NCBI GenBank assembly: GCA_024654575.1
Contig: JANLHG010000020.1
Coordinates: forward strand, 1-53,990
DNA from: Patescibacteria group bacterium
Lineage (GTDB): Bacteria > Patescibacteriota > Minisyncoccia > Phycocordibacterales > PALSA-1337
Direction: 5' to 3'
Length of the DNA stretch: 53,990 bases
The notes beneath the pieces were generated by a model. That model made no database searches. It saw only the letters and a list, made by a program, of their open reading frames with translations, and had not been told where the DNA came from. The translations under genes and the position numbers were made by a program. Below are positions 1 to 44,513 of this stretch, one piece after another. Position 1 is the first letter of the stretch; each line of letters starts with the position of its first letter.

Positions 1-1589
1 CTATTTCTGATGATGAAATTGTTTATAAAGAAAATAAAACAAAACTTTATACGTTCAAGTATTGGAAGGACTTCCCTATCTCCATCGCTACGACTCGTCC
101 TGAAACAAAACTTGGTGACACTGGTATTGCTGTAAATCCAGAAGATATTAGATATAAAAAATATATTGGGAAAGAATTTGAGGGTAATTTCGCTGGTACT
201 AATCTTAAGATAAGAATTGTTTCTGATTCTTCAGTTGATCCAGAATTTGGTACTGGTGCCGTTGGGATTACTCCTGCTCATAGTATGATTGACTACGAAA
301 TTGGCGAAAAAAATAATTTACCAGTTATTCAAGTTATTAATGAATACGCAAGAATATCAATAGATAACCCAGAATTTAAAGATAAAAAAACTACCGAAGC
401 AAGAGATCTTATTATTGAATGGATTAGAAAAGAAAATTTACTTGAAAATGAAGAAGAAATAACTCAAAATATTGCAACTGCTGAAAGAACTGGTGGTGTT
501 GTTGAACCGTTACCTAAATTACAATGGTTTGTAAATGTTAATAAACCAATTCCAGAACGAGATAATAAAACTCTTAAAGACATAATGCGATATGCTGTAC
601 AAAGTAAACAAATAAATATTTTACCAGAATATTTTGATAAAACTTATTTTCATTGGATTGATAATTTGCGTGATTGGTGTATTTCTAGACAAATATGGTT
701 TGGACATCGTATACCAGTTTGGTATAAAGGCGATGAAGTATATTGCGGTATTGAAGCACCAAAAGAAAATGGATGGGAACAAGATGAAGATACACTTGAT
801 ACTTGGTTTTCTTCTGGATTATGGACATTTTCTACACTTGGTTGGCCTGAAAAAACAAAGGATTTGGAATTGTATCATCCCACGAGTGTACTTGAAACTG
901 GTTATGATATTTTATTTTTCTGGGTAGCTAGAATGATTCTTATGTCAGGATATCTTCTTGGCACCGTTCCTTTTAAGACGATATATCTCCATGGTATTGT
1001 TCGTGATGAAAAAGGTCGAAAAATATCAAAATCCCTAGATAATAACGCTGATCCCGTTGATCTTGGTAAAAAATATGGTTCAGATGCTGTCCGTTTAGGT
1101 CTTATTATTGGTACTGGTCCGGGTAATGATTCAAAAATTAGTGAAAATAAATTAAAGGGTTATAAAAATTTTGCCAACAAAATTTGGAATATCGCTCGGT
1201 TTATTTTAAGCACTAATGAAAACGTAGAATATGATGAAAAGTTTAGTGAATATACTGATGAAGATAAAAAATTAATAAAAGATCAGAGTAATTTATTATT
1301 GGAGATTACTAAAGAAATGGATGAGTATAAATTTTATTTAGTAGGTGAAAAGATATACCACTATGTATGGCATACGTTTGCTGATATCATTATTGAAGAT
1401 AGTAAAAATATTTTTGCAGGAATTGATAATTATGCAATTTTATCTAGAAAACAACTCTTATTTCATTCTCTCGGCTTTATTTTAAAAATACTTCATCCTT
1501 TTATGCCGTTTATTACTGAAGAAATTTGGAGTTTATCACCACTTAATAAAAATAAAACACTGCTTCTTGTGGAAAAGTGGCCAATTTAA
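1..1589 (+). CDS. valS: Valine--tRNA ligase (5' part outside window)
   Basis: Frame is open from base 3 (ISDDEIVY...IATTRPET). Motifs DWCISRQIWFGHRIP, DTWFSSGLW, GYDILFFWVARM and KISKS. Ends without the C-terminal coiled coil. Confidence 0.97.
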   Translation, partial: ISDDEIVYKENKTKLYTFKYWKDFPISIATTRPETKLGDTGIAVNPEDIRYKKYIGKEFEGNFAGTNLKIRIVSDSSVDPEFGTGAVGITPAHSMIDYEIGEKNNLPVIQVINEYARISIDNPEFKDKKTTEARDLIIEWIRKENLLENEEEITQNIATAERTGGVVEPLPKLQWFVNVNKPIPERDNKTLKDIMRYAVQSKQINILPEYFDKTYFHWIDNLRDWCISRQIWFGHRIPVWYKGDEVYCGIEAPKENGWEQDEDTLDTWFSSGLWTFSTLGWPEKTKDLELYHPTSVLETGYDILFFWVARMILMSGYLLGTVPFKTIYLHGIVRDEKGRKISKSLDNNADPVDLGKKYGSDAVRLGLIIGTGPGNDSKISENKLKGYKNFANKIWNIARFILSTNENVEYDEKFSEYTDEDKKLIKDQSNLLLEITKEMDEYKFYLVGEKIYHYVWHTFADIIIEDSKNIFAGIDNYAILSRKQLLFHSLGFILKILHPFMPFITEEIWSLSPLNKNKTLLLVEKWPI

Positions 1590-11027: not shown

Positions 11028-11951
11028 ATGATTTACGACTTAGCAATTATTGGTGGCGGTCCGGCAGGAGTATCTGCTGGTGTTTATGCTGCTAGAAAAC
11101 GATTGAAGACTGTTTTTATCACTAAAGATTTTTTGGGACAAAGTTCAGTTTCTGATGGTATTGAAAATTGGATAGGAACAATAAAAATATCTGGAACGGA
11201 ATTGTCTAAAAATTTAGAGAATCATTTGAAAGCGTACGCGAGTGATGTTGTGGAAATTAAGGAAGGAGAAAATTGTGAGAATGTTTCAAAAATATCTGAA
11301 GGTTTTTTAATAAAAACAAAAACACAAGAGTTTCAAGTAAAAACAGTTCTTATTACCGCTGGAAGCAGAAGAAGAAAACTAGAAATACCAGGTGCGAAAG
11401 AGTTTGATAATAAAGGACTGACCTACTGTGCTACTTGTGACGGTCCACTTTTTGCGGATAAAGATGTCGTTGTTATTGGTGGTGGTAATGCTGCTTTTGA
11501 AACTGCTGGACAATTATTGGCTTACTGTAAAAGTGTCACTTTATTAAATAGAAGTGAAATATTTAAAGCAGATGAAGTAACAGTTAAAAAAATTCTTTCT
11601 AATCCAAAAATGAAAGCTGTTATCAATGTAACTCCGGTAGAAATAAAAGGAGATAAATTTGTTAACGCTATTGTTTATCAAGATGCCAAAACAAATGAAA
11701 AAATTGAATTAAAAACAGACGGGATTTTTGTGGAGATAGGACTTTTGCCTAACACCGATTTTATAAAAGATGTAGTTAATCTTAATCAGTACAATCAAAT
11801 TATCGTTGACCCTAGAAATCAGCGCGCCTCTACGTCTGGTATTTGGTCTGCTGGAGATTGTACAGATGGACTTTACCATCAAAACAATATCGCTTCTGGC
11901 GATGCCGTCCGCGCCCTTGAAGACATTTATACTTATTTGCATTTGCAGTAA
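11028..11951 (+). CDS. trxB: Thioredoxin reductase / AhpF-like FAD oxidoreductase
   Basis: GGGPAG, CATCDG, VIGGGN, AGD motifs. Confidence 0.88.
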   Translation: MIYDLAIIGGGPAGVSAGVYAARKRLKTVFITKDFLGQSSVSDGIENWIGTIKISGTELSKNLENHLKAYASDVVEIKEGENCENVSKISEGFLIKTKTQEFQVKTVLITAGSRRRKLEIPGAKEFDNKGLTYCATCDGPLFADKDVVVIGGGNAAFETAGQLLAYCKSVTLLNRSEIFKADEVTVKKILSNPKMKAVINVTPVEIKGDKFVNAIVYQDAKTNEKIELKTDGIFVEIGLLPNTDFIKDVVNLNQYNQIIVDPRNQRASTSGIWSAGDCTDGLYHQNNIASGDAVRALEDIYTYLHLQ

Positions 11952-11958
11952 TTATTTT

Positions 11959-12342
11959 ATGCAAAAAGATTTTGATAAGTGGAACAAAAGAAAAAAGGAA
12001 ATTAATGAAGAACAGCCAAATTTCTACCATGCGAGAGATATTCGTTGGTGTTCTCTTGGTGTTAATATAGGATTTGAACAGGATGGAACAAGTGAAGCAT
12101 ATCGTAGACCTGTTTTGATTATTAAAGGATTTAGCCGTCATGTTTGTTTAGTTGTACCACTTACGACATCCATAAAGAGAAATCCATATCATATTAATGT
12201 GGGCGTGGTTGAAGGTAAGAAAGCGTTTGTTATTTTATCTCAAATAAGATTAATTGATACGAAACGATTACATGATCGACTTGCTATTTTAAATAAAGAA
12301 AAGTTTGAAGAAATAAGAAAAGCCATCAGAGTTTTAATCTAA
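11959..12342 (+). CDS. PemK/MazF-family endoribonuclease toxin (orphan, 127 aa)
   Basis: MQKDFDKWN...WCSLGVNIGFEQDG...RPVLII...VVPLTT...LSQIRLIDTKRL. The real start is the ATG at 11959, not 11806. Confidence 0.9.
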   Translation: MQKDFDKWNKRKKEINEEQPNFYHARDIRWCSLGVNIGFEQDGTSEAYRRPVLIIKGFSRHVCLVVPLTTSIKRNPYHINVGVVEGKKAFVILSQIRLIDTKRLHDRLAILNKEKFEEIRKAIRVLI

Positions 12343-12399
12343 TGGCTATTTCTTTGTTCTCTCCGATTTTCATCGGAGGACGGCCCGAAGGCATTTGTA
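12310..12399 (-). ncRNA. Candidate small structured RNA convergent on pemK (copy 1)
   Basis: Minus strand reads UACAAAU, GCC-UUCG-GGC, CUCCGAU-GAAA-AUCGGAG, AGAA, then hairpin AGCCAUUAGA/UCUGAUGGCU and a U-tract. The same layout occurs at 44395-44479. Confidence 0.65.
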
Positions 12400-12404
12400 A
12401 TTAA

Positions 12405-12433
12405 AGATTAGCATAGATAATTAAATCTTGCAA
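12405..12433 (-). promoter_or_regulatory. Sigma70-type promoter for candidate RNA copy 1
   Basis: TTGCAA-17 nt-TAATCT with an extended -10 TG. Confidence 0.6.
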
Positions 12434-12668
12434 CTTTGAGGATCTAAAAGATTTTGCTGATGAAGTAGTTGTCACTACTTTTCCCTCAGAATCTGATAAC
12501 CGTCACGGCAGAAGGTCTCCTTTTGTTAGGGTATTTTTCGAAAATCAACAAGAAATGGAAAACTGCAAACAGATTCTTTCTCGGGTTCCAAACCTGTATA
12601 AGGTTTGCTTCGACGTTGAGTTTGTGCAGGTGAAAGCTTTTTGCAGTTTTCCACCAAAGACGGTATGA
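12417..12668 (+). pseudogene. Start-less ORF remnant and/or structured RNA
   Basis: Open frame EDLKDFADEVVVTTFP...VEFVQVKAFCSFPPKTV* with no start codon near its 5' end (first ATG at 12555); also contains nested long stems. Confidence 0.4.
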
Positions 12669-12688
12669 TTCGACAAAATTTATTTTCC

Positions 12689-12725
12689 CCGCGAATGTTG
12701 GAAACATTCGCGGTTTTTTCTTTTT
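12689..12725 (+). terminator. Intrinsic terminator
   Basis: CCGCGAATGTT-GGA-AACATTCGCGG followed by TTTTTTCTTTTT. Confidence 0.8.
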
Positions 12726-12731
12726 ATAGAA

Positions 12732-13709
12732 TTACTTCCAATGTGTTTTGATATATTCCTCTGCTTCACTCATGGAAAAAGGTTGAGTTGAATTCCCTAC
12801 TCTGACGAAAAATTCCTCCTTTTTATCACTATTACGCAAGTAAGCTGGTTTATGACTTTCTCTGATTGAAATAACACAAACCTCAAAATTTTTCACTTTT
12901 TCAAATTTTACATCCACATATTTTGTGAATGGTAAACCTATCATTGTTTTTACTAGTGTATTGAGATGGTTTTCAAATCCATCCCTATTTTTCTTTGGTA
13001 ATGTTTTATAATCATCTTCCAGTCCCACAACTTCTCCTTCATCATTTACACCTATTATTAAAATTCCACCATTGGTATTAAGAAAAGAAACAATTGTTTT
13101 TAAAATAGTGTGTTCTATTTCCTTACTCACTTCTTTTTTACGGATATCAAAACGCATTGTTTGTTTAAATTCCATAAAACTGCTTTCGCCATCTTTAATT
13201 AAAGATAAAATATTTTTATTTGTTGATGAACGTGTTAATGAATTATGTGCTAATTGTTTTATGATATGTACATATTCGTCAACATTATTAGCGTTTTTTA
13301 TTTTTGTAACTCTATTATTTCCATGGACTATAGTGATAGTTGCGTGATTCATTAATTTACTTAAAAGCGATTGATAGATTTCAACTGATACCACATTAGT
13401 CAAACTTACTGCTTTTTTATGGCGGAAAAATAAACCGAATTTTTTAACAATTTCTTTTTCAGTTATTTCGTAATGAGAAAAATACCAATTAAGAAAAAGT
13501 AGTGATACGTATATTAATTGAAAAAGAGAGAATCCTAGTATTAAAAAAATCTGATAGCGTATAATTTTTGTTAGTCCCCAACTTTGGTAAAGCATCTCAT
13601 AATTGGCCAAAAATGATATGGAATACAGAAAAATTGCTGCCAATGTTTCCATAATAAGAACATCTCTTAGGAAAACCAATGGTCCTTCTTTGATAATTAT
13701 CCGTCTCAT
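12732..13709 (-). CDS. Membrane protein: 2 TM + bacterial PH-like domain + Schlafen/AlbA_2 domain
   Basis: Two TMs, then YEITEKEIVKKFGLFF...VSVEIYQSLLSKLMNHATITI (bPH_2-like), then GESSFMEFK...IVSFLNTNGGILIIGVNDEG...FVRVGNST (AlbA_2). Confidence 0.82.
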   Translation of the reverse strand: MRRIIIKEGPLVFLRDVLIMETLAAIFLYSISFLANYEMLYQSWGLTKIIRYQIFLILGFSLFQLIYVSLLFLNWYFSHYEITEKEIVKKFGLFFRHKKAVSLTNVVSVEIYQSLLSKLMNHATITIVHGNNRVTKIKNANNVDEYVHIIKQLAHNSLTRSSTNKNILSLIKDGESSFMEFKQTMRFDIRKKEVSKEIEHTILKTIVSFLNTNGGILIIGVNDEGEVVGLEDDYKTLPKKNRDGFENHLNTLVKTMIGLPFTKYVDVKFEKVKNFEVCVISIRESHKPAYLRNSDKKEEFFVRVGNSTQPFSMSEAEEYIKTHWK

Positions 13710-43157: not shown

Positions 43158-43231
43158 TGGCTGCGGGACTTGGAATCGAACCAAGATTCACGGCTTCAAA
43201 GGCCGCTGTACTACCATTATACGATCCCGCA
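43158..43231 (-). tRNA. tRNA-Gln(TTG), CCA encoded
   Basis: TGCGGGA/TCCCGCA acceptor, GCGGC-CTTTGAA-GCCGT, TTCGATT T-loop. Confidence 0.96.
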
Positions 43232-43457
43232 ATATTATTTCTTTTTCACGCCTACAATCTTTCAACTTTCTCTCATACGTTCTTGCCTCCTTTTCTGAAT
43301 TAAAATCCTCAGTATATACAAGGATGAATGGAACATAATGTTTTGTTGATCGTACCTTTCCATCATTATGTTCCTTGACCCTTTCTCTAATTCTATTAGT
43401 ACTTCCTACATAATACCACTTCTTTGCTAAACTTTTTATTATATATACTTTCCACAT
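43188..43457 (-). CDS. GIY-YIG nuclease (89 aa) overlapping tRNA-Gln
   Basis: MWKVYIIKS...YYVGST...ERVKEHN.G...ST...EARTYERKLK; the stop codon lies inside the tRNA. Confidence 0.9.
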   Translation of the reverse strand: MWKVYIIKSLAKKWYYVGSTNRIRERVKEHNDGKVRSTKHYVPFILVYTEDFNSEKEARTYERKLKDCRREKEIILRDRIMVVQRPLKP

Positions 43458-43461
43458 AAAT

Positions 43462-43506
43462 GCTGTACTACCATTATACCTGCCTGCGCAGGCAGGCGAT
43501 CCCGCA
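43462..43506 (-). repeat. Duplicated 5' 27 nt of tRNA-Gln interrupted by an 18-bp perfect palindrome
   Basis: TGCGGGATCG[CCTGCCTGCGCAGGCAGG]TATAATGGTAGTACAGC is identical to 43231-43205 apart from the insert. Confidence 0.92.
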
Positions 43507-43602
43507 AAATTTTTAAAATACAATTATAAAATACTATAAAAATACTATAATATCAATACCTTAAATTCCATCACGTATGACATATGGTATTATTAAATAA
43601 TT

Positions 43603-44097: not shown

Positions 44098-44429
44098 ATG
44101 CAAAAAGATTTTGATAAGTGGAATAGTAAGAAAAAACAAATAGACGTTAAGAATGAAATTCCTTTTTTTAAGGAGAAGAATTTATGCGACCAATTTTGAT
44201 TATTAAAAAATATAATCAATATTCTTTTCTTGCTCTTCCATTGAGTACTTCATCTAAAACAAATAAGTATCGTATTCCAATTGGAGTGGTTGATGACAAA
44301 AATGCTCTCGCTAATTTGTCTCAAATAAAAAATATAGATAGTAAAAGACTTATCAATAAAGTTGGTTATATAGAACATGACAAATTGAAGGTTATAAAAG
44401 AAAAAACTAGCCGAATTAATTTTGGCTAG
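44098..44429 (+). pseudogene. PemK/MazF toxin pseudogene (internal deletion plus frameshift)
   Basis: MQKDFDKWNSKKKQID...PFFK in one frame and GEEFMRPILIIKK...LSQIKNIDSKRL in another; the WCSLGxNIGFEQDG segment is missing. Confidence 0.88.
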
Positions 44430-44479
44430 TTTTTTCACTTTCTCCCTCTTACGAGGGCGAGCCCGAAGGCCATCTGTAC
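44395..44479 (-). ncRNA. Candidate small structured RNA convergent on pemK (copy 2)
   Basis: Minus strand reads GUACAGAUG, GCC-UUCG-GGC, CCCUC-GUAA-GAGGG, AGAA, then hairpin ACUAGCC/GGCUAGU and a U-tract. Confidence 0.65.
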
Positions 44480-44484
44480 ATAGA

Positions 44485-44513
44485 AGTATATCAGGTAAGC
44501 TTAATCACCGCAA
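44485..44513 (-). promoter_or_regulatory. Sigma70-type promoter for candidate RNA copy 2
   Basis: TTGCGG-17 nt-TATACT with extended TG; overlaps the end of dnaX. Confidence 0.55.

Follow-up and report, generated by a model that had tools for sequence, protein, structure and literature searches.

A convergent pair downstream of trxB

The stretch analyzed here, a 53,990-nucleotide (nt) segment of Patescibacteria DNA (contig JANLHG010000020.1; hereafter, the window), belongs to a genome of 686 kb in 25 contigs. Seven nt past the stop (at 11951) of a thioredoxin-reductase-like gene, trxB, begins an intact pemK gene (copy 1), and on the opposite strand, directly beyond it, lie a promoter-like sequence, two hairpins and a terminator that together delimit a putative small RNA (sRNA) gene converging on pemK (Table 1). 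Direct reading returned exactly the order of elements downstream of pemK that an initial annotation, made from the sequence alone, had listed, and confirmed the spacing to trxB. The hairpin at 12321..12347 constitutes the overlap between sense and antisense strands: within it fall the pemK stop codon (12340-12342) and the ~8 codons before it, and a terminator scan lists it for the minus strand only. The predicted RNA folds at -33.5 kcal/mol (z -5.9). The promoter proposed for it is weak in its hexamers (7/12 matches) and is passed over by a generic promoter scan, but its position is conserved among relatives, and for this reason we take it as real.

The window holds a second locus, described initially as another pemK followed by the same elements, with a hairpin 2 that differs in sequence and still pairs. 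The RNA part of this description stands, whereas pemK copy 2 is a pseudogene that, by comparison with the family alignment, lacks ~21 codons, including the invariant G-N-G-E-G block. The promoter of its intact sRNA overlaps the end of dnaX, with the -35 box inside the last dnaX codons and the -10 box directly past the dnaX stop.

Table 1. Features of the two pemK loci in the window. Minus-strand parts are written in transcript order; promoters are read from sequence.
Feature	Position	Strand	Details
pemK copy 1	11959..12342	+	intact open reading frame, 127 amino acids, MazF/PemK fold; Pfam PF02452 E=7e-15 over residues 27-126
sRNA copy 1 promoter	12405..12433	-	-35 TTGCAA 12433-12428, 17-nt spacer, TG-extended -10 TAATCT 12410-12405
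sRNA copy 1	12310..12398	-	~85-89 nt; predicted +1 = A at 12398; covariance model R1 63.4 bits
sRNA copy 1, 5' tail	12399-12392	-	ACAAAUG (TACAAAUG at 12399-12392); begins six bases past -10 box
sRNA copy 1, hairpin 1	12392-12383	-	GCC-UUCG-GGC
sRNA copy 1, hairpin 2	12378-12361	-	CUCCGAU-GAAA-AUCGGAG; A-rich linker comes next
sRNA copy 1, terminator hairpin	12347-12321	-	27 nt, one U.G pair, then U tract
pemK copy 2	44098..44429	+	pseudogene; stop after 33 codons, remainder from 44184 in another frame
sRNA copy 2 promoter	44485..44513	-	-35 TTGCGG 44513-44508, 17-nt spacer, TG-extended -10 TATACT 44490-44485
sRNA copy 2	44396..44477	-	intact; R1 79.1 bits; fold z -5.2
sRNA copy 2, 5' tail		-	ACAGAUG
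sRNA copy 2, hairpin 1	within 44461-44470	-	
sRNA copy 2, hairpin 2	44444-44457	-	CCCUC-GUAA-GAGGG
sRNA copy 2, terminator	44407-44429	-	

The element accompanies pemK in Patescibacteria

Searching the genome of the window with the toxin (tblastn) returned three intact paralogs, one broken in two pieces and one weak unrelated match. The sRNA element lies on the convergent strand at all four pemK loci, each time with a -35/-10 pair, and no two of the four hairpin 2 stems have the same sequence, yet each of them pairs. Of 15 occurrences of the 8-nt hairpin 1 core in this genome, only those at the four pemK sites have the surrounding plan, and a 17-18-nt core motif is likewise confined to these loci. 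Across a sample of 201 genomes of the same order (that of the window, G000, included), the core motif has 18 sites in 14 genomes, and a reversed control has none. Promoter, two hairpins, linker and terminator are present at 18/18 sites, and at each of them the stop of the convergent PemK falls 50-62 nt into the RNA; the PemK open reading frames (ORFs) there comprise 14 intact genes, one broken gene (window copy 2), two C-terminal remnants and one gene cut by a contig end.

Aligning the 18 RNAs with MAFFT left hairpin 2 misaligned, and a covariance model (R1) was instead built from the RNAs of nine relatives with similar stem length, the structure being written by hand. In the window's genome R1 identifies the four pemK places on the RNA strand (48-79 bits) and nothing else besides four weaker echoes, which correspond to the terminator on the opposite strand. 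The toxin subfamily occurs in 56 of the 201 genomes, with up to nine matches per genome in genomes under 1 Mb. At the 29 best loci of the order, a strong R1 match adjoins the gene in 21 cases, and inspection by eye revealed variant RNAs at the other eight (five with weak matches, three with none). Hairpin 1 of such variants is often swapped to GGC-UUCG-GCC, and many are two-hairpin forms: their second hairpin is long, sits within a conserved CCGAGA...UCG and has the U tract after it.

For a locus scan of species-representative genomes, a narrow toxin alignment served as the query, one of 26 diverse toxins having proved too broad. Among the loci kept, the best 80 of 282 relatives, an R1 match lies on the minus strand directly past the gene in 80/80; their labels are of Patescibacteria type except for one contig labelled Chitinophagaceae. 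A further 40 paralogs were missed by R1, yet by eye 39 of them have a promoter on the convergent strand, a tail of the A-Y-A type, hairpin 1 and another hairpin, the one exception (L183) presenting a longer and different RNA-like unit. A simple descriptor, consisting of TTGnnn-16..18-TAnnnT with a G+C hairpin of 3-4 bp within the next 9-23 nt, was evaluated at 152 distinct loci and is found on the antisense strand at 142 of them and on the sense strand, which served as control, at eight; the ten misses are mostly looser variants, and in one an ORF runs past the usual stop. The element is thus locked to pemK loci and does not behave as the generic dispersed repeat that the initial annotation had named as the case against its proposal.

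Several loci of this survey depart from the standard layout. The contig labelled Chitinophagaceae (L082; CBDFFM010000020.1, 330 kb) carries a pemK and sRNA locus with an R1 score of 86.9 bits, which reflects either mis-binning or the presence of the module outside the Patescibacteria. Tandem arrays of two or three pemK-like genes are found at L067 (1474-2911), L115 (255-1369) and L134 (130-1118), and extra divergent paralogs (e.g., L067 1903-2409, L115 887-1372) begin just past the sRNA promoter of the first module and are not followed by a standard RNA. Two tandem sRNA-like units, some without a clear promoter, follow a single pemK at L155, L162, L170 and L187 and are candidates for duplicated antitoxins.

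Covariation, promoters and loop types support a strand-specific structured RNA

Covariation was assessed on 84 RNAs in an R1-fitted alignment. The modelled structure is paired in 97.5% of cells, with double changes at 18/18 modelled pairs (236 cells), figures that overstate independence because the alignment leans to the model and the sequences are kin. None of 500 shuffles reached the observed covariation values, and sliding the partners by 1-3 columns lowered pairing to 31-56%. Even so, hairpin 2 by itself adopts many unrelated stems within single genomes.

Folding favors neither strand, the z values being about equal (-5.9/-5.2 for copies 1 and 2 on the RNA strand vs -4.4/-6.4 on the other), and the choice of strand consequently rests on promoters, loop types and the excess of G.U pairs. 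A TAnnnT box precedes 81 of the 84 RNAs, ending in 70 of these exactly 6 nt before the A of ACA; among the same 81, at least 5/6 matches to TTGACA are present in 62 and a TG extension in 53. As read from sequence, the sRNA promoter is near-consensus in most relatives, and the first transcribed base would be the A of ACAAAUG. The hairpin 1 loop is UUCG in 74/84 and the hairpin 2 loop is most often GCAA, loops of the UUCG or GNRA type being found on this strand only, and terminator stems contain 91 G.U cells vs 9 A.C cells. The minus-strand assignment made at the outset therefore agrees with loop types and G.U excess, even though folding alone does not choose it.

At the gathering score, Rfam identified only five tRNAs in the whole window, and with E up to 10 its best match on the element reached 20.9 bits against a cut-off of 59. 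The covariance modelling and Rfam comparison by which the initial annotation had proposed to check the element thus yield a covarying family with no Rfam match. A 'pemK motif' was reportedly described by Weinberg et al. in 2017; the main text of that work does not contain the word 'pemK'. Other identities were considered and rejected. Neither a signal recognition particle RNA nor a riboswitch could be recognized in the element, and a small peptide gene is at odds with the absence of any conserved reading frame in the sRNA: the AUG leads into frames that differ in phase and length between copies 1 and 2, and a small cluster of downstream ORFs represents translation through hairpin 1.

The same data bear on whether there is a functional RNA at all. 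The locus could instead consist of a bidirectional terminator and a downstream remnant riding with a mobile pemK cassette, and the good folding of both strands, the variable neighborhoods of the module and the weak promoter hexamers of copy 1 would be compatible with this. It would leave unexplained, however, the compensatory changes in hairpins 1 and 2, a promoter kept at constant spacing in 81/84 RNAs, the strand specificity of loop classes and G.U excess, and the survival of the element after pemK loss described below, and we regard it as exceedingly improbable. Together, these comparisons support the view that the convergent element is a real, strand-specific structured RNA gene locked to this PemK subfamily.

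The RNA outlasts the toxin, and no protein partner recurs

The initial annotation had noted that pemK copy 1 has no antitoxin ORF, and no recurrent neighboring protein emerged from the wider family either. No recurrent family of ORFs of at least 35 amino acids was detected in the ~450 nt upstream of pemK at 75 loci or in the ~550 nt downstream at 72 loci; taking both sides, the largest clusters span 3-4 loci and consist of pemK paralogs, of an ATP-binding cassette (ABC) ATPase or of frames read through the RNA. Similarly, the window's genome contains no Pfam match to MazE_antitoxin over the cut-off. Neighborhoods vary by locus, and it follows that the moving unit is pemK plus the RNA.

Decay of the pair was examined by running R1 against 151 genomes of the order (the window's included) and comparing its matches with toxin matches and fetched regions. 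R1 returned 39 matches in 26 genomes, of which 28 adjoin an intact pemK, four adjoin a broken, truncated or remnant pemK, and seven have no pemK detectable with the family hidden Markov model. In most of these seven, the terminator still contains the final few codons of the toxin, and six keep the promoter. Intact toxins without the RNA, in turn, amount to at most a few of 152. The RNA hence outlives the toxin (11/39, window copy 2 among them) and the reverse almost never occurs, which points to an RNA antitoxin; the pattern, seen from sequence, fits what an antitoxin predicts and not what a cofactor or a passive remnant predicts.

This asymmetry also bears on the proposal that the RNA is not an antitoxin, but a cofactor, guide or substrate of the nuclease, or a regulator of other genes. 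Strict linkage by itself would fit such a role too, and the conserved tail and hairpin might be directed at some third molecule. A cofactor should nevertheless decay with or before its protein, contrary to the 11 RNAs that outlast the toxin and the rarity of the opposite, and an active MazF-fold RNase without a neutralizer would be hard to keep at up to nine copies per genome. We consider these roles very unlikely.

Two of the orphaned RNAs have acquired unusual contexts. The sRNA with the top R1 score of all (99.4 bits), at L013 (G140:C2), has no pemK left, and the last ~9 codons of the lost gene are fused in frame to an unrelated ORF, forming an open frame of 155 amino acids. At L009 (G017:C7) a similar pemK remnant ends an open frame of 55 amino acids.

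A MazF-fold toxin with an additional N-terminal helix

PemK copy 1 aligns with S. aureus MazF and B. subtilis EndoA, the nearest solved structures. R50-P51 is invariant in 26/26 aligned relatives, P67-L68 is nearly so (at least 90%) and positions 69-71 are mostly T/S; the conserved R50-P51 / P67-L68 region matches the catalytic region of the S. aureus and B. subtilis MazF proteins. An AlphaFold2 (AF2) model of the protein has a predicted local distance difference test (pLDDT) score of 85.8 and a helix at residues 5-16, and its top Foldseek matches are YdcE/MazF structures (probability 1.00). Judged by its conserved residues and fold, the toxin is likely active. The subfamily, for which one search returned 943 database proteins, differs from canonical MazF in a basic/aromatic N-terminal helix, FDxWNxxKK, in which W8 and K12 are invariant and K3 and F5 are conserved in at least 90% of sequences.

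The ACA/UACA motifs are not avoided in 145 pemK coding sequences (ratios 1.04), although this is a weak test. The most depleted 4-mers in the same set are the palindromes ACGT, GATC, TCGA and TTAA (0.59-0.85 vs synonymous shuffles), a depletion that looks like restriction-site avoidance.

Relatives on Campylobacterota plasmids

Searches of plasmids (tblastn) detected the subfamily, N-terminal helix included, on 12 records (six from Helicobacter, four from Campylobacter jejuni and two from Nitratiruptor), among them pVir of C. jejuni 81-176, and it is also present in seven Campylobacter phage or prophage records. At each of the five plasmid loci that were read, the toxin stop is closely followed by a convergent unit made up of a TG-extended promoter, two or three hairpins and a terminator. 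The RNAs of Helicobacter plasmids covary between plasmids, and their hairpin-ACCAGAG-hairpin junction recalls the CCGAGA of the two-hairpin form. The pVir protein and the Patescibacteria family align from end to end, again including the FDxWNxxKK helix (BLASTP 3e-17, hhalign 99.5%).

An RNA-antitoxin pair of Campylobacter, cjrA/cjpT, is reportedly the subject of Shen et al. 2016 (Mol Microbiol 101:909). In the passages of two further sources that deal with it, cjrA is described as the antisense RNA antitoxin of a type I pair, cjrA/cjpT, on pVir of C. jejuni 81-176 (PMC7826846; PMC10470494). The annotation of this plasmid lists a single toxin-like gene, the one of the PemK family, and on that ground we assign cjpT to it, an identification that we hold to be quite probable. 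The initial annotation did not recognize the arrangement as described, a view weakened by the presence of this toxin subfamily, next to a small RNA gene that converges on it, on pVir, the plasmid for which those passages report cjrA/cjpT. The literature searched contains no description of such a pair in Patescibacteria, nor of this RNA family.

A putative RNA antitoxin acting at the 3' end of the toxin mRNA

Our preferred reading, to which we give a probability of roughly 0.7, is that pemK and the convergent ~85-nt sRNA form a two-gene toxin-antitoxin module with an RNA antitoxin, most likely working in a 3' antisense mode. The sRNA would be made from its own promoter and end at the hairpin that also holds the last codons and stop of the toxin; it would then base-pair with the toxin mRNA at its 3' end and reduce synthesis of the toxin, perhaps via cleavage by RNase III, which is encoded in the window's genome, much as in type I systems with 3' overlaps and as reported for cjrA/cjpT. 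In the three-hairpin form, complementarity is guaranteed over ~45 nt, from the linker through the shared hairpin to the U tract. The toxin strand of the two-hairpin form has no U tract after the hairpin, and the toxin mRNA should therefore cross the whole RNA gene, the overlap becoming the entire sRNA. The 5' tail and hairpin 1, which lie outside the overlap, would probably add a second function, such as stabilizing the RNA or contacting either the toxin or some other factor. Neutralization of the toxin by the RNA, as initially proposed, draws comparative support from the linkage, the absence of a protein partner and the decay pattern; from such comparisons we infer expression of the sRNA, toxicity of the protein, and neutralization by the RNA together with its mode.

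Several observations weigh against this reading. Conservation in the sRNA is highest in the tail and hairpin 1, beyond the antisense overlap, which a pure antisense model leaves unaccounted for; this part is moreover nearly identical among the four paralogs of the window's genome, whose terminators differ. In both RNAs, highly stable hairpins tie up the overlap region. Pairing of the sRNA 5' part with the translation-initiation region of the toxin was no stronger for cognate than for non-cognate pairs at 78 loci (difference -0.53 kcal/mol, p=0.69), and with no cognate signal a par-like 5' complementarity to the toxin start was rejected. Three of the 152 loci (the second gene of L115, the first gene of L134, and L183) lack a standard RNA, and the covariation alignment has the built-in dependence noted above. 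Lastly, the plasmid precedent comes by way of the assignment of cjpT, and R1, run with filters off on the five Campylobacterota loci, gave no significant match (best, 13 bits at the expected place), so that RNA-level homology between Patescibacteria and Campylobacterota is not shown. The Patescibacteria module is probably related to the single studied Campylobacter case.

Conservation outside the overlap would fit an antitoxin that binds the protein. In such a type III-like arrangement the sRNA would neutralize PemK by binding it, tail and hairpin 1 filling the RNA groove, perhaps held by the N-terminal helix of the subfamily, and the 3' overlap would be a by-product of a shared terminator. 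Besides the position of the most conserved part, this would account for a 5' part that is near-identical among the four paralogs while terminators differ, for a conserved basic/aromatic helix that precedes the Pfam match (which starts only at residue 27), and for solo sRNAs with intact promoter and structure, which make sense as trans-protection against paralogous toxins; the predicted +1 at ACA would also resemble the 3' product of MazF-type cleavage, MazF enzymes often cutting ACA-containing sites. On the other hand, Tandem Repeats Finder (TRF) detected 0 repeat arrays in 11500-12900, the RNA gene is downstream and convergent instead of upstream, the toxin belongs to PF02452 and not to a ToxN-type family, the more distant members of the sRNA family have other 5' tails, and ACA/UACA is not depleted in the 145 toxin coding sequences. 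The sole experimentally studied relative is, furthermore, described as type I in those parts of PMC7826846 and PMC10470494 that concern it. On balance, binding of the protein as the means of neutralization appears rather unlikely.

In its most explicit form, this alternative would make the sRNA a single-copy convergent protein-binding antitoxin whose transcript starts with ACA and a UUCG-capped hairpin and serves as an uncleavable product or substrate mimic, plugging the PemK dimer via the N-terminal helix; we regard this, too, as doubtful. If it were true, one RNA, solo copies included, could cross-protect against several toxins, given that paralogs have the 5' module in common, and a module present in up to nine copies in genomes of <1 Mb could sense transcription shut-off for phage defense. 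The related suggestion of the initial annotation, a decoy presenting UACA, does not hold up: the predicted start is the A of ACA, so that the U of UACA is probably untranscribed, and the divergent tails and the lack of motif avoidance speak against it as well.

Comparison with known toxin-antitoxin systems

MazF and PemK toxins are the textbook case of type II systems, in which the antitoxin is a protein. Like MazEF/PemIK, the module described here has a toxin of this fold with Arg and Thr/Ser at the catalytic positions, but it has neither a MazE/PemI-type nor any other recurrent neighbor protein, and its toxin bears the extra N-terminal helix. As in type I systems, a separate, predicted non-coding RNA gene with its own promoter, covarying hairpins and terminator stands beside the toxin, and the RNA is complementary to the toxin mRNA, its terminator holding the toxin stop and last codons at 18/18 core-motif sites.

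Type I systems that overlap at their 3' ends are known from Firmicutes, namely txpA/RatA, bsrG/SR4 and par RNA I/RNA II, the last with a shared bidirectional terminator. Common to these and to the present module are a convergent toxin mRNA and sRNA overlapping at their 3' ends, an encoded RNase III and a strong promoter dedicated to the sRNA. Their toxins, however, are small hydrophobic peptides, as opposed to a 127-amino-acid soluble MazF-fold protein, and the overlap here is short, mostly one hairpin, with no par-like dispersed 5' complementarity found. SymE/SymR of E. coli, also a type I pair, has as its toxin a fairly large protein that cleaves RNA, in place of a membrane peptide; it differs in that SymR overlaps the toxin mRNA at the 5' end and SymE has a fold like that of AbrB.

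The type III systems ToxIN, CptIN, TenpIN and AbiQ/antiQ use as antitoxin upstream, same-strand tandem repeats that are processed by the toxin. The likeness lies in an endoribonuclease toxin of a related fold class paired with an RNA antitoxin in the absence of a protein antitoxin, and an antitoxin RNA that is labile yet abundantly transcribed could here, too, be of use in phage defense; the RNA of this module is instead single-copy, convergent and downstream, and the toxin is a PF02452 protein. PADLOC returned no match.

The closest counterpart is cjrA/cjpT, in which an antisense, non-coding RNA is the antitoxin to a protein toxin; just past the stop of the pVir PemK-family gene lies a convergent unit of promoter, hairpins and terminator. 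This pair differs in residing, with its relatives, on conjugative or small plasmids and prophages of Campylobacterota and not on Patescibacteria chromosomes, and the convergent RNA of pVir is alike in architecture only, with no similarity detectable by R1.

These results indicate that a whole PemK subfamily is tied to a structured small RNA instead of a protein partner. On our best reading of the sequences, an RNA-antitoxin module built on a MazF-fold toxin would be widespread in Patescibacteria and mis-annotated there as type II, the automatic 'type II toxin' labels on these pemK genes being misleading. This would link a lone observation on a Campylobacter plasmid to a large, unrecognized family, and it adds an RNA family with strong covariation that is absent from Rfam. 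Patescibacteria cells are host-dependent and exposed to phages, and to our knowledge almost nothing has been reported on their small RNAs; a dense set of RNA-controlled RNases, each module measuring ~0.5 kb, would provide them with a concrete regulatory or defense system.

Neighboring features of the window

Between the promoter of sRNA copy 1 and the next gene, ~250 nt (12434-12720) contain no convincing ORF, the longest reaching 54 amino acids (12469-12633, plus strand). A strong plus-strand terminator (12689-12713, 11 pairs and a T run) closes this gap, which may constitute another small transcription unit. Upstream of the second pemK locus, a 111-amino-acid ORF on the minus strand (43188-43523) overlaps the 5' side of the tRNA-Gln gene at 43158-43231, also on the minus strand; by eye its product resembles a small GIY-YIG-type nuclease.

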